This document shows, one piece after another, positions 1,131-29,929 of a stretch of 38,758 nucleotides of DNA (position 1 is the first letter of the stretch; the number at the start of each line of letters is the position of its first letter). The notes beneath the pieces were generated by a model, which saw only the letters and a program-made list of their open reading frames with translations, searched no databases and was not told where the DNA came from. Location: IMG/VR virus record IMGVR_UViG_2541047683_000001; one strand, written 5' to 3'. The DNA is from a virus. Its lineage: Duplodnaviria > Heunggongvirae > Uroviricota > Caudoviricetes. The position numbers and the translations under genes were made by a program.

Positions 1131-3113
1131 TCATTTTGAGTTAAAAAAGCTTATAATTTCTGTCAGCCATGAAGGCGTATATTTTTCATTAATATCAAAA
1201 AGAGCATTGGTGTATTCTTGACAAAATTTAGTTTTATTTCCAGATTCCTCAAAATATCTTTTTATTATTAATTTTTGGCTAGTTGTCAGATCTAATATTC
1301 CAGCTGCAACATTGGACGGTAATGTGTTAATGTTCTCTATAAATGAGAATCTATTATCACCTTTCTTATAAAGTCGATGTAATGTTTTGTGGAAAATAAT
1401 CCCAGATAATACATCTTCAATTTCAGTTGGTGGAGAAACTCTATTGTCGGTGGTTTTTAGTAAGTCAGCATCACTTAAATCATCGCGTAGCAGCAGTCTT
1501 CTGATTCTGACTTGCGATATGCTGTCTGAAGTATCAAATTTATCATACGATTGATCTGTATCCAATAAACAAAAGACTTTTCCTTTTATTGCCGGCTTTC
1601 TGTCTTTTAAAGCTAAGATAAGATATGAGTAAATATCTTTGAGTGCAAATGACCCCCCAACACTTAATACAATTATATTTTTATTTTCTAAATTTTCAAA
1701 TTTAAGATGGGATTCAATGTATAATTTATCTGTACGTCCTTCGCACAATATCCAATTATAATTATTTTGTGATGTAATTGAAGTTATTATGGATTGAACA
1801 AGATCATGATTGCTTTTCACTTCTAAAGTATCTAAATATGAGCCTTTAGATTCTTTAACAAGGGTCGACAATTCATCTCGATAATACTCAAGGTTAAGGC
1901 ATTTTATCAATGCTTGATTTGGAGAAACATAAGTGGCACTACCGCTCATTGCTGCAGGAAGAAAACCATACCAATGAGTAGTACATATGGTTTGAATGCC
2001 TATTTCACTTATTTTTTTAATCTTCTCAAATTGTTTAAAGCAAGATGTCGCATGTAAAGATAACTCTGGTTCATCGACAGCTAATATTGTAGCTTGTTGA
2101 GTTTTTTTGGGATTGTCTTTTAAAAAACCTATGGCTAAATCAAGTAATGCCTTCCTTTTTTCACCAGAACTAAGATTGTGGACAGGTGTATCCCTATTGA
2201 TATTGTCAATATAATGAAGAATTTTGTCACTAAAGTAAGTTTCGATGATTTTAGAAATCATGTGGCGTTGAGTAAATGAATTCTGCCGTTGCGTCGGTCT
2301 TTTGAATTGATACTGCCCATCAAGCTTATATGATAGTTGATCAACAAAGTCATTTAAGTGACGATTTATTTCATTGATGTCACTTTTTTTAATTATCTTA
2401 CTGATTCGTTGTTGTAAGTTTTCTCCAAGTAAAGATTGCAATAACTCACTCTCTATTTTTGAATATTCTGACGTGGTAATTTCTGCAGGCAAATAAATAT
2501 AGTTATAGATATCTTTTATATTATCAAGCAAGCGATTTGATGTGTTCTTGAAATGGTTTTTCTGAGTGTTTGGGGAGCTTCCATCGGGAATTAGTTCATC
2601 AATTCTGGAATGATAATCCTCAATTGATTCAAATATTGACATATAAGATCTAGGTGCTTCATTCGCTTTTTCTTTTATGACTCCTAAAGGAATTAAAAAG
2701 TAATCTTTAGATGAGTAGTTTAACTCTAATATATTGCGATGTGATATAAATTTTTCGGCAATTGTTCGTTGCATTGAATTAAAGTCTTCACTTTCCAATT
2801 GCCATGTAATATCACTAATAACATCAAGAGCTTTATAAGTAAATGAATTAGACCTGAAGCGATCTTTACGTATGAGAAAAATTGGTACAATAAACGGTTC
2901 ACGAGTTTCGAATCCCAGACTCCTGGCATCATTATTTATATCAAGTCTGTTTATATCTGTTCTGTTAAGAACAACATCCAAAGCTTGCAATATTGAACTT
3001 TTTCCAACACCATTTTCACCAATAAGCCAAGATGAATTGTTATTCATAGCGATCGGAATATAATGTTGATTCCTAAAATTTTTGAAGTTTCTTAAAATAA
3101 CACCGATAATCAT
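1131..3113 (-). CDS. OLD-family protein: N-terminal ABC-type ATPase plus C-terminal TOPRIM-like nuclease domain (candidate anti-phage cargo)
   Basis: ORF track 1131..3116; ATG at 3113 with AAGGGA upstream, 19 nt after the repressor stop; Walker A GENGVGKSS; Walker B-like ILAVDEPELSLH; C-terminal ILCEGRTD glutamate motif and CLLDTDQ DxD motif; visibly AT-rich. Confidence 0.7.
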   Translation of the reverse strand: MIIGVILRNFKNFRNQHYIPIAMNNNSSWLIGENGVGKSSILQALDVVLNRTDINRLDINNDARSLGFETREPFIVPIFLIRKDRFRSNSFTYKALDVISDITWQLESEDFNSMQRTIAEKFISHRNILELNYSSKDYFLIPLGVIKEKANEAPRSYMSIFESIEDYHSRIDELIPDGSSPNTQKNHFKNTSNRLLDNIKDIYNYIYLPAEITTSEYSKIESELLQSLLGENLQQRISKIIKKSDINEINRHLNDFVDQLSYKLDGQYQFKRPTQRQNSFTQRHMISKIIETYFSDKILHYIDNINRDTPVHNLSSGEKRKALLDLAIGFLKDNPKKTQQATILAVDEPELSLHATSCFKQFEKIKKISEIGIQTICTTHWYGFLPAAMSGSATYVSPNQALIKCLNLEYYRDELSTLVKESKGSYLDTLEVKSNHDLVQSIITSITSQNNYNWILCEGRTDKLYIESHLKFENLENKNIIVLSVGGSFALKDIYSYLILALKDRKPAIKGKVFCLLDTDQSYDKFDTSDSISQVRIRRLLLRDDLSDADLLKTTDNRVSPPTEIEDVLSGIIFHKTLHRLYKKGDNRFSFIENINTLPSNVAAGILDLTTSQKLIIKRYFEESGNKTKFCQEYTNALFDINEKYTPSWLTEIISFFNSK

Positions 3114-4378: not shown

Positions 4379-4410
4379 TTCCATTTTGGGATACATCAGG
4401 GGTGTCGACC

Positions 4411-4920
4411 ATGTTTGATTACCAAGTTTCCAAACATCCACATTTTGATGAAGCCTGTCGTGCATTCGCACTGCGACACAATCTGGTGAAACTGGCAGAA
4501 CGTGCAGGCATGAATGTACAGATTCTGCGGAACAAGCTGAACCCAGCTCAACCTCATTTATTAACCGCACCAGAAATCTGGTTGCTTACTGATTTGACTG
4601 AAGATTCAACGCTGGTAGATGGCTTTCTGGCACAAATTCACTGCCTGCCATGTGTACCGATTAATGAGGTAGCAAAAGAGAAACTGCCGCATTACGTCAT
4701 GAGTGCAACCGCAGAGATTGGGCGTGTTGCTGCTGGTGCGGTATCTGGTGATGTGAAAACCAGCGCAGGTCGTCGTGATGCTATCAGCAGCATTAACTCT
4801 GTAACACGATTGATGGCGCTGGCTGCTGTTTCATTGCAGGCCCGTTTACAGGCTAATCCTGCGATGGCGAGTGCAGTTGATACCGTGACTGGCCTCGGCG
4901 CTTCATTCGGTTTGCTATGA
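4411..4920 (+). CDS. cII: phage 186 CII-like lysogeny establishment activator
   Basis: 169 aa starting [20 protein letters not shown] and ending ASFGLL, recalled as close to 186 CII along its length; track ORF starts upstream at 4357 but ATG 4411 matches the CII N-terminus. Confidence 0.9.
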
Positions 4921-11382: not shown

Positions 11383-11883
11383 ATGGAACAGGATTATATA
11401 GATCGTGGCTTTGGTTTATGGTCAAAACCTGGTGTCCCGCGTAAGGGATGGGTAAACGTAGGAGTGGAAGACCTAGAAGAAAGTCGAAAAATTTGTGATA
11501 TGTGTGGGAAAACAGAGATAAGGTATGTCCACATAATGTCACATGAGAATTACCCAGATTACTTAGAGGTAGGGTGCATATGCGCTGGTCACTTGGAGAA
11601 TGATTATGATTCTCCAAGAAAACGAGAAAGTGAAATTAAAAGTCGATCAGCCAAAAGAAAAAGATGGTGTAACTTACCTTGGAAAATATCTAAAAAAAAT
11701 CAATTTTACATAAAAAAAGATGGATATAGCATCATCATTCTCGACAAGGGTGATTATTTTATGGGAATGATAGTTGACGAGAGAACGCAAATTAAATATT
11801 GGACTAGAGAATGTAAAGATACTAACGAGGCGAAATTACTTTCATTCGATAGAATAACAGCGCTAATGGCAAGCTCTAAATAA
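11383..11883 (+). CDS. zinc-ribbon-like protein, first gene of a two-gene accessory cassette
   Basis: ATG 11383 with GGAGA upstream (track ORF starts 11371); cysteine cluster CDMCGK...VGCICAGH; lysine/arginine-rich tail; AT-rich. Confidence 0.65.
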   Translation: MEQDYIDRGFGLWSKPGVPRKGWVNVGVEDLEESRKICDMCGKTEIRYVHIMSHENYPDYLEVGCICAGHLENDYDSPRKRESEIKSRSAKRKRWCNLPWKISKKNQFYIKKDGYSIIILDKGDYFMGMIVDERTQIKYWTRECKDTNEAKLLSFDRITALMASSK

Positions 11884-11899
11884 TTTTAGGATTAATTAA

Positions 11900-13030
11900 A
11901 TGTATAATGTTGTATTGGATACAAACATACTCCATGCGGAAGGTATTCACTCACGAGGTATGGCAACTCTTAAAAAGTTAATAGATGAAGGCATTGTTAA
12001 AGTTCATTTGCCTGAACTAGTCGTGAGAGAATTTTCCACGAAAAAAATCACCGTAATAAATGAAGCCTATAATAAGGCGATTAATATTTTAAGAGGCACT
12101 GAACGCGAAGCAAGAGGATCCGAAGAGTCGATACTGCGAGATATTGATGAACTAAAAAACATCATAGACGACAAAGTGAAAGTACTTGATGAAAAAATTA
12201 ATGGTGCAGTTAGGCAATGGATTCAGGATTTTCGAATAAATATTATCCCGTTACATAGTGAATTTACATCAACTGTTTTTGAGAACTATTTTTGTGGCAA
12301 TGGTGTTTTTAAATCGAAAAAATCAAGAGAAGACATACCAGATGCTTTCATTAGCCTCAGTATCGAAAAGTTGCATGATGAAGTCGGTGAATTAATGGTT
12401 GTACTCAAGGATGCGTTGTTTAGAAAGCATTTGTCTGGCTTGGATGGGGTAAAAGTTTATGATAGCTTAGATGAACTTTTCCAATTGCCTAACATTAGAG
12501 CCAGTTTAGAAAATGAAGCCGCATCCTCTTTTTTGACATCAAGTTTATTCAGAACAGCGTTAGAAAACTTCTTACAGCAGAAACCGAATTATTTCGAAGG
12601 ATTCTATCTTGAGATTACTGAGGGAACAGAACTGCTTGCTGATTGGGTTATTGGTGCACATACCGAAATCAACGATTATGGACAAGTAAAGGATATTACA
12701 ATAAGTGATGTAATCAGAAAATCTGAAAGTAACTATTCAGCAAAAATTTCTTTTAAATTGGACTCTAATATCTCTTATGTAACGGATTACGGTGAAGTGC
12801 TTAAAATAGAGAGAGATAAAAACAGAAGCGCGGATTGTTGGAGTATGACAGGTGATGGCATGTGCGATCTTAATGAAAATGTGAATTTAACCTTGGAAGG
12901 TGACTTAAGTATTACCTTTCAAGGTGATTTCAATACATTGAAAAAAGAAGAATCCGAAACTTATTTGAATGAAAATGTTATTGTTATGACAATAAGTTTA
13001 TATGAGGCTATTATAGACAAAGTTCTTTGA
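11900..13030 (+). CDS. PIN-like domain protein, second gene of the cassette
   Basis: 376 aa; N-terminus MYNVVLDTNIL typical of PIN-fold first acidic residue, later EDIPDAF; AGGA RBS; 17 bp after upstream gene; AT-rich. Confidence 0.7.
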   Translation: MYNVVLDTNILHAEGIHSRGMATLKKLIDEGIVKVHLPELVVREFSTKKITVINEAYNKAINILRGTEREARGSEESILRDIDELKNIIDDKVKVLDEKINGAVRQWIQDFRINIIPLHSEFTSTVFENYFCGNGVFKSKKSREDIPDAFISLSIEKLHDEVGELMVVLKDALFRKHLSGLDGVKVYDSLDELFQLPNIRASLENEAASSFLTSSLFRTALENFLQQKPNYFEGFYLEITEGTELLADWVIGAHTEINDYGQVKDITISDVIRKSESNYSAKISFKLDSNISYVTDYGEVLKIERDKNRSADCWSMTGDGMCDLNENVNLTLEGDLSITFQGDFNTLKKEESETYLNENVIVMTISLYEAIIDKVL

Positions 13031-20992: not shown

Positions 20993-21428
20993 ACTGCAGA
21001 AGGTGGACGACTGGCTGAGTGCTTTGTTGGCGAATCTGGAACCAGCCGCAAGAAGCCGCATGATGCGGCAGCTGGCGCAGGAACTGCGTCGGACACAGCA
21101 GCAGAATATCAGAATGCAGCGCAATCCAGATGGCAGCAGTTATGAACCTCGACGGGTAACAGCACGCAGTAAAAAGGGGCGCATCAAACGTCAGATGTTT
21201 GCAAAGCTGCGCACCACAAAATACCTGAAAACTGCCGCCAGCGCCGACTCTGCCAGCGTACAGTTTGAAGGTAAGGTGCAGCGTATTGCCCGTGTTCACC
21301 ATTACGGCCTGCGTGATCGCGTCAGTCATAAAGGGCCGGAGGTCCGTTACGCAGAGCGTCGCCTTCTGGGTGTGAATAATGAGGTGGAAACAGTCACTCG
21401 TGACACCCTTATGCGCTGGCTGGGTTAG
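20985..21428 (+). CDS. S: tail completion protein (P2 gpS-like)
   Basis: 147-aa ORF following R, GTG start; gpS-like. Confidence 0.85.
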   Translation: MAELQKVDDWLSALLANLEPAARSRMMRQLAQELRRTQQQNIRMQRNPDGSSYEPRRVTARSKKGRIKRQMFAKLRTTKYLKTAASADSASVQFEGKVQRIARVHHYGLRDRVSHKGPEVRYAERRLLGVNNEVETVTRDTLMRWLG

Positions 21429-22330
21429 AGACTAATTTCTAACTCAGTCAATCTATTTCTTGCGTTATCGAGGTTAATCTCATCATGGATTGCTTTTCCT
21501 GCCCCGTCAGCAGAAGGGTATATGCTAGCCGCACTGAACCCTGCTTTATTAAGAAGCTGGTAAGCATTGTATACTTCTTTTATGGGGAGTGTGTATTTAA
21601 AGAATACCGGGTGCGGGAAATCCCCAGAAAGCTCCTCTAGGCTATGAATTGTAGCTGTCCGTCCTCGTCCGCCAGTATGTGGATGAACGCTAAAAAGCCC
21701 AAATTGCGCCGCTAAGTGCGGACTGATAGAACCTGCTGTTGAATGCAATTTTATTTGTGGGTGAAGATTTATAAACTCTTTATTAAAGGCCCATATGGCT
21801 AATTTACTGGATGCATTCCAGTTTTTATAATTAGCAATGCAGGAGCTAACTGCAAAGTAAATCGCTATGTAAGGGATTCGAGTCCAATCTAACAATCTTG
21901 TTGGCACGCCATGATGCTGTGCGAGAGCCATTAAGTCGAAAACTTCTGGATTTGGCCAAGATGATGGATTTATAAGCCAATAATCTTGATTATTTATATC
22001 TAAATGCAATCTGCGGAAGTCAGGGCTATTACCGGGGATACGGACACCTACTCTGTCACAGTGATGCACAAAAGACATTAATGTTATTATCTCGCTTGCA
22101 ACAATGTCATCCGACGTAGGTGATGTTCTTCTTGTTAAATATTGCGGTGGATTACGAAGTGCTGATGGGATCAAGCTCCAGTTGGCATCACCTTGCCCTC
22201 TATAAATAATATTATCTTTACAGTTTGGGTCTATCTTTTGTGTCGGTGATAGAGCATCCCAAAGTTCAGCTGCATTGTTAAATTCGCGTAGTGAAAAAGT
22301 CGGGTATTTACGTTCGCTCATTATTTTCAT
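21425..22330 (-). CDS. FRG-domain-like protein inserted antisense between S and V (candidate defence cargo)
   Basis: Track ORF 21425..22366 starts at GTG; first ATG at 22330; motif IIYRGQGDANWSLIPSALR resembles the FRG-domain signature; stop codon overlaps S stop; no clear RBS. Confidence 0.6.
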   Translation of the reverse strand: MKIMSERKYPTFSLREFNNAAELWDALSPTQKIDPNCKDNIIYRGQGDANWSLIPSALRNPPQYLTRRTSPTSDDIVASEIITLMSFVHHCDRVGVRIPGNSPDFRRLHLDINNQDYWLINPSSWPNPEVFDLMALAQHHGVPTRLLDWTRIPYIAIYFAVSSCIANYKNWNASSKLAIWAFNKEFINLHPQIKLHSTAGSISPHLAAQFGLFSVHPHTGGRGRTATIHSLEELSGDFPHPVFFKYTLPIKEVYNAYQLLNKAGFSAASIYPSADGAGKAIHDEINLDNARNRLTELEISL

Positions 22331-24233: not shown

Positions 24234-24831
24234 TCTGCTGCCACCGGGTTCAACACCACTGGAGCGCCGACTGGCGCAAGCGTGCAGCGGGATTTCTGAT
24301 TTGCAGGTGCCGCTGCGTGACCTGTGGGATCCGACGACCTGTCCGGTCAGTTTCCTGCCTTATCTCGCCTGGGCGTTCTCTGTGGATCGCTGGGATGAGG
24401 GCTGGACTGAAAGCGTCAAGCGCCAGGTGGTGAAGGATGCTTTTTATATTCATCAGCATAAAGGGACCACCAGTGCCGTGCGTCGGGTGGTGGAGCCGTT
24501 CGGCTTTCTGATCCGCATTATTGAGTGGTGGCAGACCGGAGAGACACCGGGCACGTTTCGTCTGGATATCGGCGTGCAGGACCAGGGCATCACTGAAGAT
24601 ACCTATCTGGAACTTGAGCGACTGATAAGCGATGCCAAACCATGTAGCCGTCACATGATCGGCATGTCCATCAACCTGCAGACCAGCGGCCCGCATTGGG
24701 TGGGAGTCGCCAGCTATCTTGGCGAAGAAATCACGATCTATCCGTATATCAACGAAACGATTATTTCCGGTGGCACCGCGCATGAAGGCGGGGCGGTCCA
24801 TGTTATTGACACAATGAGAGTGAATCCATGA
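24226..24831 (+). CDS. I: baseplate/tail fibre attachment protein (P2 gpI-like)
   Basis: 201-aa ORF between J and H, overlapping both. Confidence 0.85.
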   Translation: MNSLLPPGSTPLERRLAQACSGISDLQVPLRDLWDPTTCPVSFLPYLAWAFSVDRWDEGWTESVKRQVVKDAFYIHQHKGTTSAVRRVVEPFGFLIRIIEWWQTGETPGTFRLDIGVQDQGITEDTYLELERLISDAKPCSRHMIGMSINLQTSGPHWVGVASYLGEEITIYPYINETIISGGTAHEGGAVHVIDTMRVNP

Positions 24832-26333
24832 GCACAAAATTTTATACCCTGCTGACGGATATTGGCGCGGCGAAACTTGCCAGCGCCGCCGCGCTCGGTG
24901 TGCCGCTAAAAATTACCTATATGGCGGTGGGCGATGGCGGTGGAGTATTGCCAACGCCGGACGCAAAGCAGACGGCACTGGTAAATGAGAAACGCCGGGC
25001 TGCGCTGAATATGCTTTATATCGACCCGCAGAACAGCAGCCAGATTATTGCCGAACAGGTGATCCCTGAAAACGAGGGCGGTTGGTGGATACGTGAAGTG
25101 GGCTTGTTTGATGAGTCCGGGGCATTGATTGCTGTGGGCAACTGCCCGGAAAGCTATAAGCCGCAACTGGCTGAAGGTAGCGGGCGCACTCAGACCGTGC
25201 GCATGGTGCTGATTACCAGCAGCACGGACAATATCACCCTGAAAATCGACCCTGCTGTAGTGCTGGCAACCCGCAAGTATGTGGATGACAAGGCACTGGA
25301 GCTGAAGGTGTACGCGGATGATCAGATGGCAAAACATCTTGCCGCACCGGACCCGCATTCACAGTACGCGCCAAAAGCCAGCCCGACATTTACCGGAACC
25401 CCCAAAGCGCCAACGCCAGCGGCGGGGAATAATACCACGCAGGTTGCGACCACTGCGTTTGTACAGGCGGCACTGACGGCCCTTATTAATGGTGCGCCAG
25501 CCACGCTGGACACGCTGAAAGAAATAGCCGCAGCCATTAACAATGATCCGAATTTCAGTACCACCATTAACAATGCGCTGGCACTTAAAGCACCGTTGTC
25601 GAGTCCGGCACTCACCGGAACGCCAACAGCCCCCACGGCGGCGCAGTCGGTCAACAATACACAGATTGCCACTACGGCTTTTGTGAAATCGGCGATTGCA
25701 GGAATGGTGGGTTCTGCACCTGCTGCACTGGATACACTGAACGAACTGGCGGCGGCACTGGGGAATGATCCGAACTTTGCCACGACAATGCTTAATGCGC
25801 TGGCAGGTAAACAACCGCTGGACAATACGCTGACTCATTTGAGTGGAAAGGATGTAGCAGGTCTTCTCGCATACCTTGGTTTGGGAGAAGGTGCTCCAGC
25901 TATTGGCGTTCCGTTCTTCTGGCCCTCCGCTGCAATGCCAAATTCTGTCATCGACAGCTGGTCCGGTATGGTGTTTTTGAAGTTCAACGGCGCGAAATTC
26001 TCTGCCACTGATTATCCTGTGCTGGCGAAAGTGTTTCCTTCGCTGGTATTACCTGAAGCCCGCGGTGATTTCATTCGTATCTGGGATGACGGGCGAGGTG
26101 CAGACGGTGGTCGCGAATTATTAAGCTGGCAGGCAGCTACAAACTTTTCTCAGTTTGCCGGGAATATAGGCGAAGGTGCGGGACACGCAATTAACTTTCA
26201 TGATGGCATCGCCGGAAATCAGCCAGGATTTTCACGATTTAATTTCACCAGTAACTCTGTGGGTGATGGTGTGAATTTTGTTGCTGTCAGACCGCGAAAT
26301 ATTGCATTTAACTTTCTGGTGAGGGCTAAATAA
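24828..26333 (+). CDS. H: tail fibre protein (P2 gpH-like)
   Basis: Conserved fibre N-terminus MSTKFYTLLTDIGAAKLA; internal fibre repeats; followed by tail fibre assembly gene. Confidence 0.9.
   Translation: MSTKFYTLLTDIGAAKLASAAALGVPLKITYMAVGDGGGVLPTPDAKQTALVNEKRRAALNMLYIDPQNSSQIIAEQVIPENEGGWWIREVGLFDESGALIAVGNCPESYKPQLAEGSGRTQTVRMVLITSSTDNITLKIDPAVVLATRKYVDDKALELKVYADDQMAKHLAAPDPHSQYAPKASPTFTGTPKAPTPAAGNNTTQVATTAFVQAALTALINGAPATLDTLKEIAAAINNDPNFSTTINNALALKAPLSSPALTGTPTAPTAAQSVNNTQIATTAFVKSAIAGMVGSAPAALDTLNELAAALGNDPNFATTMLNALAGKQPLDNTLTHLSGKDVAGLLAYLGLGEGAPAIGVPFFWPSAAMPNSVIDSWSGMVFLKFNGAKFSATDYPVLAKVFPSLVLPEARGDFIRIWDDGRGADGGRELLSWQAATNFSQFAGNIGEGAGHAINFHDGIAGNQPGFSRFNFTSNSVGDGVNFVAVRPRNIAFNFLVRAK
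25377..25820 (+). repeat. two tandem 222-bp (74-aa) repeats inside tail fibre gene H
   Basis: Protein repeats aa 184-257 and 258-331 share the pattern P.FTGTP.AP....N.TQ.ATTAFV..A.......AP..LDTL.E.AAA..NDPNF.TT..NALA.K.PL. Confidence 0.6.
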
Positions 26334-26926
26334 TGAAACCTGTTTTTGATGAAAATGGGCTGGCTACAGTGCCGGGCGATATGCGTTGTTTTTATTATGA
26401 TGCTGAAACATCTGAGTATACGGGCTGGTCTGATGAATATATTAATACTGGCGTAAGTATGCCCGCCTGTTCCACTGGTATTGACCCTGGCGAAAACATT
26501 CCGGGAAAAGTAGCAGTATTTACGGGTAAGGGATGGAGCCATGAAGAAGACCATCGCAATGAGACCGTTTACTCAACTGAAAATGGCGCAGCTGTTACAG
26601 TGGATTATATCGGTGCCATCAAAGACGGTTATGTCACGCTTTCACCGTTAACGCCATACGATAAATGGGATGGTGAGAAATGGGTGACGGATACCGAGGC
26701 ACAGCATAGCGCCGCAGTAGAAGCGGCAGAAGCACAGCGCCAGTCGCTGATTGATGCTGCAATGGCTTCCATCAGTCTGATTCAACTGAAATTACAGGCC
26801 GGACGGAAGTTGACGCAGGCAGAAACAACCCGACTTAACGCCGTGCTGGATTACATTGACGCGGTGGCGGCAACAGATACCAGCACCGCGCCGGATGTCA
26901 TCTGGCCTGAACTGCCGGAGGCGTAG
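26333..26926 (+). CDS. G: tail fibre assembly protein (P2 gpG / Tfa-like)
   Basis: 197 aa with Tfa-type C-terminus VDTSTAPDVIWPELP; TAATG coupling with H. Confidence 0.85.
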   Translation: MKPVFDENGLATVPGDMRCFYYDAETSEYTGWSDEYINTGVSMPACSTGIDPGENIPGKVAVFTGKGWSHEEDHRNETVYSTENGAAVTVDYIGAIKDGYVTLSPLTPYDKWDGEKWVTDTEAQHSAAVEAAEAQRQSLIDAAMASISLIQLKLQAGRKLTQAETTRLNAVLDYIDAVAATDTSTAPDVIWPELPEA

Positions 26927-27125
26927 GCCATTCAATATCTGGTGCACTGGAAGTATCGACCAGTTCCAGTGCGTCCAGGTAATCCAGCCACAAATTATAT
27001 TGTGCCAGTTCCTCACCTTTCAGACAACCAATAGCTGCTTTGCCAGGCCATTGCTTACTGTTTATAAACTCATTAGCCCAGTCTATTCGCAGCTGTTTCT
27101 CTGCTTCGGCAGCAATAACAATCTC
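26898..27125 (-). pseudogene. inverted 3' fragment of a second tail fibre assembly gene (remnant of invertible fibre segment)
   Basis: Minus-strand ORF ends LWLDYLDALELVDTSSAPDIEWPTPP (Tfa C-terminus), tail-to-tail with G and overlapping it by about 29 nt; N-terminal part replaced by AT-rich sequence from about 27126. Confidence 0.6.
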
Positions 27126-27169
27126 ATATAAATGAAACTGATAAGTTTTTATTAAAAGTAAGATGGATA

Positions 27170-27192
27170 CCACCATTTAATATAAATGGTGG
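27170..27192 (-). terminator. hairpin immediately downstream of the 290-aa cargo gene
   Basis: CCACCATTT(aatat)AAATGGTGG perfect 9-bp stem right after stop at 27200 on the minus strand, followed by a T-rich tract. Confidence 0.4.
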
Positions 27193-27199
27193 TTCACAG

Positions 27200-28072
27200 T
27201 TAACTAGCGTGTAATAAGTTGAACAGGTTTTTAGTTACTTCGTTTTTAGTACTAAAAAACATATCTTTAAGGTCAGGTAATGCAAAGAGAGCATTTGGGG
27301 CATTCGGTACAACAATAGGAGGTTCATATCCGTTGTCATACATTTTCTTTAAAGCGGCTACTATTTTTTTCTGATTTCGATTGAATTCATTCATGTCAAT
27401 AAAAATTTCTCCAGATAGTGTCCCGTCATCTTCACGTAGTATCGCTGGTTTGACACGACATATCTGATCCATTTCTCCAGTAGAAAAACCGGCAATCGCT
27501 GCATTAAATAACAAAGATGAAGTAGCCCATTTTTCATATAGTTTTTTGATAGCCATGCTTCTGATTTTTTTATCGTTGATATATCCAATGCCACTGGCCA
27601 AAACTTCGGTTAATGGATTTTCCCCGCGAGTTACTCCAGACCAATAGTTGTGCATCCAGGGCGCATTTTGCTCAAGTGGAGAGCCGAGATAATCAGTGAT
27701 CCACTCTGAATCCACCTCTGTAAAGTTCAAACCATGAAAATCAATTTCTGCAATAGTATTTTTATAGTTTTGATTTAAACTCCAACGGTCGATTGCTATT
27801 TCAGCCATTTCTTTTGTTTTGAATAGGTATATTCCGGTTAGGCGGGAAACCTTATCTCTGAAATTGTCTGAGCGAACCTTTTCAAGAGCTAACTCATTTT
27901 GTAATTTTTCATTGTGATTATCTGATAAGTATTTCCTTACTAGATTGTAGAACCAAATAGATACTCCAAACTCACTTTTATAGCAAATTGATTCAATTCT
28001 TCCTATTGCAACCTCCCAGGCAACAATTGGATTATTTAAATTTAAGTAAGCATATAGTTTTCTCTGTTCCAT
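27200..28072 (-). CDS. hypothetical 290-aa protein, AT-rich cargo at the tail fibre/invertase locus (candidate defence or exclusion gene)
   Basis: Track ORF 27200..28171; ATG 28072 with AAGGAAA RBS (upstream extension is AT-rich and RBS-less); globular-looking, not fibre-like; no motif I recognise. Confidence 0.6.
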   Translation of the reverse strand: MEQRKLYAYLNLNNPIVAWEVAIGRIESICYKSEFGVSIWFYNLVRKYLSDNHNEKLQNELALEKVRSDNFRDKVSRLTGIYLFKTKEMAEIAIDRWSLNQNYKNTIAEIDFHGLNFTEVDSEWITDYLGSPLEQNAPWMHNYWSGVTRGENPLTEVLASGIGYINDKKIRSMAIKKLYEKWATSSLLFNAAIAGFSTGEMDQICRVKPAILREDDGTLSGEIFIDMNEFNRNQKKIVAALKKMYDNGYEPPIVVPNAPNALFALPDLKDMFFSTKNEVTKNLFNLLHAS

Positions 28073-28209
28073 TTTTATTTTCCTTATAGATGCTATGAAG
28101 GTTATTATTACATAAATGTTCGATAAATATTTTAAAGTTTTAACTATGTTTCGGTGGCAATAAATATACATTACAAGTGAAATTTATCAAGATAACAAAA
28201 GGATAGCTA

Positions 28210-28614
28210 ATGCTAATAGGCTATGTACTCGTGTCAACAAATGACCAGAACACCGAGCTGTAACTCTTTATGCTGACAGAAGAGTTGCGCCAGCATGGTG
28301 TGAATTTTAGAAGCCTGACTGACAGTATTGATACCAGTACCCCAATGGGCCGTTTCTTTTTTCATGTCACGGGTGCCCTGGCTGAAATGGAACGCGAACT
28401 GATAGTTGAACGTACCAGGGCGGGGCTTGCTGCAGCTCGCGCCAAAGGCAGAGTAGGTGGACGCCGTCCTAAGTTGACCACCGAACAGTGGGCACAGATT
28501 GGGCGTTTACTCGAGGCCGGAGAATCAAGACAGCGTATTGCACTGATTTTTGATGTGGGTGTTTCCACAATTTATAGAAAATTTCCGCCAAATAAGAGCA
28601 ATGAATCCCCCTGA
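28210..28614 (+). pseudogene. serine DNA invertase (Pin/Gin/Hin family) inactivated by in-frame internal deletion with stop codon
   Basis: N-terminus MLIGYVLVSTNDQNTEL then TAA at 28261, continuing in frame with EELRQHGVNFRSLTDSIDTSTPMGRFFFHVTGALAEMERELI...GRRPKLT (C-terminal two-thirds of an invertase); about 65 catalytic-domain codons missing; R-to-L change in GYVRVS motif. Confidence 0.8.
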
Positions 28615-28662
28615 ATCAGCATAATTTTGATTATCCCTGCAAGCAGACAAATACCGTCATTT

Positions 28663-28680
28663 TGTGTGAATAACGGTACA
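28663..28680. promoter_or_regulatory. Ogr-type late activator site TGTGTGAATAACGGTACA upstream of FI
   Basis: TGT-N12-ACA about 77 bp upstream of FI ATG. Confidence 0.55.
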
Positions 28681-28756
28681 ACTGCGCTTAGCTGTTTGTC
28701 AGGCACAATCACTTCAACATAGGGCGAAGCCTAATCCAATCAGGAGGTTCGCCACT

Positions 28757-29929
28757 ATGGCTCAGGATTACCACCACGGGGTGCGTGTTGTTGAAGTCAA
28801 CGAAGGCACCCGATCCATTACCACGGTGAGCACCGCCATCGTGGGTATGGTCTGCACGGGCGATGATGCCGATGCAAAAATGTTTCCTCTTAATAAACCT
28901 GTGCTGATCACTGATGTGCTGACTGCAAGCGGTAAAGCGGGTGAGTCCGGCACATTGGCCCGCTCGTTGGATGCCATCGCTGACCAGGCAAAACCCGTGA
29001 CCGTTGTTGTGCGTGTACCGCAGGGTGAAACGGAAGAAGAAACCACGACCAATATCATCGGCGCAGTGACTGCTGAAGGTAAAAAAACAGGTATGAAAGC
29101 CCTGTTATCTGCCCAGTCCCAGCTCGGCGTTAAACCGCGTATTCTCGGCGTGCCAGGCCACGACACCAAGGCGGTAGCTACTGAGTTGCTGAGCGTGGCG
29201 CAAAGCCTGCGTGGGTTTGCTTACCTGTCAGCGTATGGCTGCAAGACAGTGCAGGAGGCGATCACTTACCGCGAAAACTTCAGCCAGCGCGAAGGGATGC
29301 TGATCTGGCCTGACTTTACTGGCTGGGACACGGTACTGAATGCCGAAGCAACGGCATATGCCACCGCCCGTGCGCTCGGTCTGCGCGCCAAAATTGATGA
29401 GCAGACTGGATGGCACAAAAGCCTGTCCAACGTGGGCGTGAACGGTGTCACCGGAATTTCTGCTGATGTGTTCTGGGATCTGCAGGACCCGGCAACCGAT
29501 GCAGGTCTGCTGAACCAGAACGACGTCACCACGCTTGTGCGCAAGGATGGTTTTCGCTTCTGGGGTTCCCGCTGTCTGAGCGATGATCCGCTCTTTGCCT
29601 TCGAAAACTACACCCGCACGGCGCAGGTGCTGATGGACACGATGGCAGAAGCACACATGTGGGCGGTGGATAAACCGCTTAACCCGTCGCTGGCCCGCGA
29701 CATTATCGAGGGTATCCGCGCCAAAATGCGCAGCCTGGTCAGTCAGGGCTATCTCATTGGTGGTGATTGCTGGCTGGATGAGTCGGTGAACGACAAAGAC
29801 ACGCTGAAAGCCGGAAAACTTACCATCGACTACGACTACACGCCAGTGCCGCCACTTGAAAACCTGATGCTGCGTCAGCGCATCACCGATCAGTACCTGG
29901 TGAATTTCGCCAGCCAGGTCAGCGCGTAA
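28757..29929 (+). CDS. FI: tail sheath protein (P2 gpFI-like)
   Basis: 390-aa ORF; AGGAGG RBS; gpFI-like sequence and position. Confidence 0.95.

Follow-up and report, generated by a model that had tools for sequence, protein, structure and literature searches.

Probable remnant of an invertible tail-fibre switch, with a cargo gene, in a P2/186-like prophage of Escherichia coli

The IMG/VR record IMGVR_UViG_2541047683_000001 (38,758 nt; this whole stretch is called the window below) represents an entire Escherichia coli prophage of the P2/186-like type; strain C4 (NZ_CP010121) has it at 100% identity, and it adjoins ybjL-grxA. In the slot between its tail-fibre genes and its tail sheath gene lies what is very probably the decayed remnant of an invertible tail-fibre switch of the Gin/Cin/Pin family, in which the fibre is locked as Hv-G, that is, in the combination of the expressed variable tip (Hv) of the tail-fibre gene H with the assembly chaperone of that tip (G). 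A cargo gene of 290 aa lies amid the relics. An earlier, sequence-only reading of the same DNA had described an inactivated host-range module of the Mu/P1 style with the fibre held in one orientation, and the recovery of an intact homologue, together with the single remaining crossover site, bears this out. Judged from its sequence, the segment would no longer invert. It is the missing second site, and not the dead enzyme, that would fix the fibre, because an invertase of this family encoded by one prophage can act on sites in another (PMC12529663).

Anatomy of the locus beside an intact homologue

The reference for the ancestral arrangement is an intact homologue of strain GW-AmxH19 (L002), which has, in order, H, G, an inverted second assembly gene (G', 146 aa), an inverted "gp53-like" alternative tip (H'v), a 188-aa recombinase and the sheath gene. 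Its two 26-bp inverted crossover sites (2565-2591 and 4399-4425) form an inverted repeat, with TTCTCGCATACCTTGGTTTGGGAGAA within H and TTCTCCCAAACCAACGTTTAAGAAAA at the start of H'v, and each arm comprises a 26-bp site with a 2-bp core. When the segment was inverted in silico, the constant part of H became fused in frame to the alternative tip. NZ_OZ547090.1 matches the predicted flipped junction at 359 of 359 positions, and at least 80% of the junction is covered in 29 genomes. Thus, modules of the L002 type do invert, and both orientations occur. The intact invertase allele matches the solved structure of Mu Gin (E 2e-92). Of 5426 complete E. coli genomes, 735 have this allele at near full length, and thousands of E. 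coli prophages match parts of the region. The gene order of the intact relatives (constant part, site, variable tip, chaperone, inverted chaperone, inverted tip, site, invertase) is that of the Mu G/gin and P1 C/cin systems, and their 26-bp sites with a 2-bp core are likewise as in those systems, and also as in e14 and the Salmonella systems. Goldberg et al. (2014, PMC4272514) include an account of active inversion of tail-fibre loci in P2-like E. coli prophages, and a section of the iLund4u preprint (bioRxiv 10.1101/2024.10.15.618418) describes the Z/fun hotspot as holding an invertase with tail-fibre genes that invert, interspersed with other cargo. The window shares the phage group and the locus of these published elements, which are active switches; a decay series with a cargo gene does not figure in the parts of these sources that describe them.

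The window shares 96-97% DNA identity with L002 on both flanks of the damaged region (96.8% between 24800-27078 and L002 1501-3779; 96.4% between 28268-28800 and L002 4701-5233), and it therefore descends from modules that are found in both orientations. What distinguishes it from the Mu and P1 systems is that it has lost one site, the alternative tip and half of the second chaperone and that its enzyme is triply inactivated, which makes it a relic and not a working member of the group. The presence of the module had been read as a sign of mosaic ancestry, canonical P2 having none. P2 does lack it and has fun(Z) in its place, but the mosaic reading was overstated, given how common the near-full-length allele is in E. 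coli.

The surviving crossover site (Table 1) is homologous to the left inverted-repeat arm of L002 (2565-2591) and marks the end of the constant part of H at 25889, the expressed tip Hv occupying 25890-26333. A cix/gix-like full-site pattern matched once in the whole window, with 0 matches expected from 100 shuffles, and no second match was found there at up to 3 mismatches, whereas L002 and a second intact module (L008, a metagenomic contig, ERZ15609865) have two sites. Crossover half-sites had been suspected near 26890-26940 and 28180-28210, and a TTATCAA sequence before the invertase start had been noted as half-site-like. TTATCAA belongs to no site, and these resemblances are due to chance: the half-site pattern gave 12 matches in the window against 9.8 expected, none of them near the relics, and the only full site lies about 1 kb upstream. 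In place of two tip/chaperone pairs arranged tail to tail, the window has Hv and G intact, about 70 codons of G' and no H'v.

Two observations concern the H gene itself. The RefSeq annotation, made with the Prokaryotic Genome Annotation Pipeline (PGAP), splits the intact 501-aa open reading frame (ORF) into two "partial" pseudogene pieces (24828-25217 and 25866-26333), the second of which starts within the surviving crossover site, 2 nt from its edge. The ORF is divided likewise in the intact-module genome L002, and the division looks like an annotation artefact of the modular, constant/variable structure of the fibre. H also has an internal duplication of ~70 aa (TTAFV..APA.LDTL.E.AAA..NDPNF..), at 25380-25598 and about 25600-25811, visible as a 65% identical off-diagonal BLAST match.

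The sequence-only reading had recognised an antisense fragment, overlapping the 3' end of G, with the C-terminal ~70 aa of a tail fibre assembly protein, and this identification is confirmed. Residues 20-87 of the formal ORF (26898-27176, minus strand) match positions 65-130 of the 131 of Caudo_TAP (E 6.8e-18) and are 43% identical to the C-terminus of G (E 1e-10). The ORF overlaps the 3' end of G tail to tail by 29 nt, and an overlap of the same length and arrangement is present in intact modules (L002). The formal ORF opens with ~17 codons that are part of the cargo cassette, and the assembly-gene-derived sequence reaches only to about 27125; DNA homology extends to 27078 with the intact G' of L002 and to ~27107 with other alleles. 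Alignment with L002 shows that the window has neither the right crossover site nor any of H'v, and that its G' is without the N-terminal half. Homology with the cargo-bearing module L008 (27130-28253) begins 4 nt outside the right crossover site of the latter, and no half-site is kept at this left junction, which indicates an illegitimate deletion in which the invertase had no catalytic part. An invertase-mediated deletion between the right site and a quasi-site in G' was considered and rejected: there is no half-site at 27114-27129, and the break lies outside the site and not at its core.

The lesions of the invertase gene are equally clear. The stop, the in-frame resumption and the R-to-L change that had been reported all stand, while the estimate of ~65 missing codons does not: by alignment with the closest intact allele, that of L002, 162 bp, or 54 codons (residues 19-72), are gone in frame at 28263/28264. 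The two point lesions are R7L (CGC to CTC) and the Q18 stop (CAA to TAA). Serine recombinases require the Ser9 nucleophile and the equivalents of R8, R68 and R71 of gamma-delta resolvase, and the arginines of their D-R-L-G-R motif are catalytic. The window keeps S9, has leucine in place of R7, ends in TAA at codon 18, and has lost D64-R65-L-G-R68 with the deleted residues. The C-terminal piece matches positions 85-144 of the 145 of Resolvase (E 1.5e-19) and 1-43 of the 45 of HTH_7 (E 2.7e-15), and in a protein alignment with L002, L008, a further relative (L005) and Mu Gin the relic is 68% identical to Gin. A Fis-dependent recombinational enhancer lies in the 5' part of the invertase gene in Gin and Cin. 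That of Hin is likewise in the 5' part of the gene, ~100 bp from a site (PMC3798978). By position, the enhancer of the ancestral module would fall in the deleted nt 55-216 of the invertase gene.

Table 1. Features of the tail-fibre locus, in window coordinates
Feature	Position	Strand	Description
H, tail-fibre gene	24828..26333	+	Intact ORF, 501 aa; Pfam Phage_tail_fib at residues 1-150, E 1e-64
26-bp crossover site	25864..25889	inside H	Sole survivor; TTCTCGCATACC TT GGTTTGGGAGAA; encodes LAYLGLGE at the constant/variable junction
G, assembly chaperone of the expressed tip	26333..26926	+	Intact, 197 aa; Pfam Caudo_TAP 1-131 of 131, E 1.1e-27
G' relic, second (inverted) tail-fibre assembly gene	26898..27125	-	About 70 C-terminal codons left; formal ORF extends to 27176
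Left deletion junction	27126..27129		ATAT; G' relic/cargo cassette, by alignment with L008
Terminator-like hairpin	27169..27193	-	Directly 3' of the cargo stop codon; 11-bp stem, -16.4 kcal/mol, z -4.1
Cargo gene	27200..28072	-	290 aa; BC2332/DUF2441-like ADP-ribosyltransferase-type fold (predicted) and C-terminal domain; P2 Z/fun position, opposite to the tail operon
Divergent intergenic region	28073..28209		AT-rich; presumed cargo promoter; homologous to the cargo-invertase spacer of L008
Invertase relic, N-terminal piece	28210..28263	+	17 codons with R7L, then TAA for Q18; encodes MLIGYVLVSTNDQNTEL
Invertase relic, C-terminal piece	28264..28614	+	Same frame; end of the catalytic domain (E-helix) and HTH_7 DNA-binding domain
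TGT-N12-ACA motif	28663..28680	+	Read from the sequence; upstream of the sheath gene FI (start 28757); presumed Ogr-type activator site of the late F-operon promoter

Cargo-bearing relatives and the order of events

The module had been said to be partly replaced by cargo, a description that relatives with a homologous cargo gene show to be misleading. In L008, the cargo of which is 87% identical to that of the window, the sheath gene is followed by a 183-aa invertase, the cargo, the right site TTCTACAAAACCTTGGTTTAGGGGAA, H'v, G', G, and H with the left site. Two partial contigs, L005 of Citrobacter sedlakii and a further one (L010), have the cargo adjoining a full-length invertase, and the L005 contig also takes in a site and, before it breaks off, the beginning of H'v. 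As the cargo of these relatives stands between an intact invertase and an intact segment, the cassette appears to have been inserted outside the invertible segment without destroying the switch. We found no further inverted repeats flanking the cargo beyond the G/G' homology.

The relatives can be ordered into successive stages of decay, all with a homologous cargo gene that shares 61-97% amino-acid identity with that of the window. L008, intact and with both sites, comes first; L005 and L010, with an intact invertase beside the cargo, come next and are followed by the window; then comes a variant found in four E. coli genomes (L003), with the same junctions and R7L as the window and a further invertase deletion of 106 bp; and last comes L009, in which the cargo is kept and only ~100 bp of the 3' end of the invertase gene are left. 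Being common to L003 and the window, R7L predates the split of these two variants. The copy of the G' relic in L003 has 3 in-frame stops. Its additional 106 bp were lost between two GTAC(T/C)C microhomologies, at L003 4581-4586 (corresponding to window 28225-28230 and 28331-28336). The G' relic (26927-27125) differs by 14% between the two E. coli variants, as against 3% for the neighbouring cargo, at a synonymous divergence of ~0.10. This exceeds the prediction of simple neutral decay and suggests patchy recombination with other assembly-gene alleles.

From these comparisons we infer that insertion of the cargo came first and did not kill the switch, and that the loss of the site, the alternative tip and half of G' was a separate deletion. 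In the ancestral state, a serine invertase would have flipped a segment of ~1.8 kb between two 26-bp sites, one at the constant/variable junction of H and one at the far end of the segment, and would thereby have swapped the receptor-binding tip of H together with its cognate chaperone (Hv-G versus H'v-G'). The cargo would have arrived as a self-contained cassette on the opposite strand, with promoter region, 290-aa gene and hairpin terminator, between the right site and the invertase gene. Freezing would have been the work of the illegitimate deletion, after which inversion would have been impossible whatever invertase was supplied. The invertase gene, now useless, may then have gathered R7L, the nonsense codon 18 and the 162-bp in-frame deletion that removed the D-R-x-x-R motif.

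The position of the cassette also alters the geometry of the intact modules that bear it. In these, ~1.1 kb separates the invertase gene from the right crossover site (L008 1422-2521); the distance in L002 is ~55 bp. For Hin, long distances between enhancer and site are known to raise processive recombination (PMC3798978).

The proposed order is not proven, and several points weigh against it. Intact relatives of the L008 type share at most 83% DNA identity with the window (83% over the whole cargo cassette) and are cousins, not direct ancestors. Within the invertase relic, the N-terminal piece (28210-28264) is 89% identical to L002 (4481-4535), compared with 96.4% from 28268 on, and the first 9 nt of the gene (ATGCTAATA) are nearer to L008 than to L002. 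These features, together with homology to L008 that begins at 27130, crosses the whole cargo without a break and takes in the first 44 nt of the invertase gene, would suit a replacement in one step, in which a fragment of a cargo-bearing relative (terminator, cargo, promoter and the first ~18 invertase codons) took the place of everything from mid-G' to invertase codon 72, so that both junctions and the apparent internal deletion arose from one event. We consider such a replacement rather unlikely. At nucleotides 28230-28255 the window is identical to L002 and has 4 differences from L008, which points to a mosaic made by homologous recombination and not to pure donor DNA; R7L and the TAA codon would still require separate point mutations; and L003, which shares R7L, has other deletion end points, at the GTAC(T/C)C microhomology, which shows that deletions do arise in situ.

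Two further alternatives concern what is left of the switch. The C-terminal invertase fragment might have been retained to regulate by binding crossover sites or to inhibit related invertases in a dominant-negative manner, considering that it forms an ATG-initiated ORF of 114 aa (28270-28614) with the E-helix and an intact HTH_7 domain and that it is 96% identical to the functional allele. This is very unlikely. No Shine-Dalgarno sequence precedes the ATG; the frame is broken in L003, the 106-bp deletion not being a multiple of 3, and only ~100 bp are left in L009; recent common ancestry alone would account for the high identity. Even smaller is the chance that the segment is still inverted by an enzyme supplied in trans from another prophage (Pin of e14, PinQ or another P2-like prophage). 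PinQ of Qin does invert the P segment of e14 (PMC12529663), and the left site in H is intact, but two sites are needed where the window offers a single match, with half-sites at chance frequency, and the alternative tip is absent.

A sequencing or assembly artefact, whether by errors or by mis-assembly across the inverted repeat, can be dismissed, however often invertible segments break or scramble short-read assemblies (the contigs of some relatives do end near the site), since 3 complete genomes of independent origin (cow, human and wastewater) have the window sequence at 100% identity, and 4 others have a variant that is 95% identical and shares its junctions. The contig ends near the site were not used as a sign of active inversion, as the inverted repeat alone would break such assemblies.

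The cargo gene and its family

The cargo gene has the marks of a self-contained acquisition. The 290-aa reading uses the start chosen by PGAP and by nearly all homologues. The cargo stretch has a GC content of 26-40%, compared with ~55% in the flanks. The terminator-like hairpin is identical in L008 despite the 83% identity of the whole cassette, and the presumed promoter region includes a promoter-like match on the minus strand at 28190-28163 (-35 TTGATA, -10 TATATT; consensus level only) and, within 28073-28209, no crossover site. As a non-core gene between G and FI with deviant composition and a predicted transcription unit of its own, it has the properties of a Z/fun hotspot cargo. The gene is present in 7 E. 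coli genomes and absent from thousands of related prophages. Sequence comparison indicates that purifying selection maintains it: its copies in the two E. coli variants are 97.1% identical, with a ratio of nonsynonymous to synonymous substitution rates (dN/dS) of 0.14, whereas the adjacent G' relic is 85.9% identical.

Database searches returned few leads to its identity. The protein had no match in PADLOC 2.0 or NCBIfam, and a tblastn search of 50,697 phage records with it gave none; it matched two PHROGs of unknown function, and its matches in BFVD were to uncharacterised proteins only. Against Pfam DUF2441 (PF10386) it scored 13.7 bits, below the gathering threshold of 25, and sub-threshold matches to the same family were obtained for 25 of 61 homologues (best E 5.3e-05). 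A structure model built from the 61-sequence alignment reached a predicted local distance difference test score (pLDDT) of 94.7, and its fold is similar to that of 2AUA (BC2332 of Bacillus cereus), the founding structure. DUF2441 was built around BC2332 and belongs to the ADP-ribosyl clan (PMC7955679); SCOP has a "BC2332-like" class in the ADP-ribosylation superfamily (PMC3000352). The cargo is only 19% identical to BC2332 and has an extra C-terminal domain of ~120 residues, and neither protein has a demonstrated activity. Members of the cargo family share the motif E..E.vR..FP..SRL..Y. The NAD-binding cleft of the ADP-ribosylation superfamily has a catalytic triad (R/H - S/Y - E). In the model of the cargo, the invariant residues R77, S122 and E156 occupy strand positions that could form an R-S-E triad of this kind.

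The family has ~545 representatives at 50% identity, almost all stand-alone proteins of ~290 aa. Nine homologue contexts were inspected, one per homologue, and then a tenth. Four of the nine are the same Z/fun slot in P2-like phages, and two (Moritella, Aeromonas) are another classical hotspot of P2, which lies between the gpA and portal genes. The Yersinia homologue lies at a prophage edge beside tail-fibre genes, that of Vibrio in a cassette array with ParE/Phd, and that of Pantoea in an island with Ogr and portal relics and an AAA_15/21 ATPase; the tenth, from Candidimonas, sits in a small islet. The slots thus include Z/fun (E. coli prophage and Citrobacter) and old/tin (Moritella and Aeromonas). 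Such a spread looks typical of accessory or defence cargo. In Moritella (L014 5687-7867) the homologue stands directly downstream of a PLD/NgoFVII-like nuclease, which is either a partner or mere neighbouring cargo, and in Aeromonas (L017 5011-7861) it stands directly downstream of two unknown ORFs, again partners or mere neighbours.

A natural comparison is with fun(Z) of P2. The two genes share the slot between G and FI, the opposite strand and their character as AT-rich, non-essential genes upstream of the F-operon late promoter. Fun(Z) is the larger protein and is annotated as blocking T5; no similarity of the cargo to it turned up, the two proteins not having been compared directly. The cargo is most probably an accessory gene expressed in the lysogen, for anti-phage defence or conversion, with an ADP-ribosyltransferase-type fold. 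We put forward only tentatively the more specific idea that it represents an undescribed single-gene anti-phage defence family of BC2332-like ADP-ribosyltransferase fold, which would move among P2 hotspots and Vibrio cassette arrays and the keeping of which would have mattered more to lysogens than host-range switching.

Neighbouring features and significance of the relic

The consensus of the activator sites of P2 late promoters is TGT-N12-ACA, and the window has such a motif between the invertase relic and the sheath gene FI (Table 1). P2 has an annotated activator binding site at the equivalent place upstream of FI. The presumed Ogr-type activator site of the F-operon thus seems to have been left untouched by the decay of the module. 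A scan of the window for transfer RNA genes found none.

Three further loci of the window deserve mention. An AAA-family ATPase gene (1131-3113, minus strand; 660 aa) lies in an island of 30-32% GC between the integrase and CI repressor genes, a slot called a third P2 hotspot in the literature, and is probably another defence-type cargo. The interval between the replication gene and the portal gene, the classical old/tin hotspot, holds a hypothetical gene and one for a PIN-domain protein in an AT-rich island (11383-13030, plus strand; 34-35% GC), and close relatives additionally have a SIR2 protein there. A gene for an FRG-domain protein (21425-22321, minus strand; 42-43% GC) is inserted on the opposite strand between the baseplate V gene and the tail-completion genes.

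The finding is real but ordinary, a well-understood kind of relic at a known hotspot, and such discovery value as it has lies only in the uncharacterised cargo family. For annotation and for phage biology it is relevant that the prophage would make one fibre tip only, so that its host range would be fixed. The locus offers a worked example of how an invertible host-range module decays after the loss of one crossover site, with homologous cargo genes preserved across at least four stages of the decay. It also suggests that a switch can survive the entry of cargo between one of its crossover sites and the invertase gene, which bears on the evolution of the mixed-purpose Z/fun hotspot. The cargo itself, a selected protein of ADP-ribosyltransferase fold that is predicted to be well folded, recurs in defence hotspots and is absent from PADLOC 2.0, and is thus a candidate defence gene.

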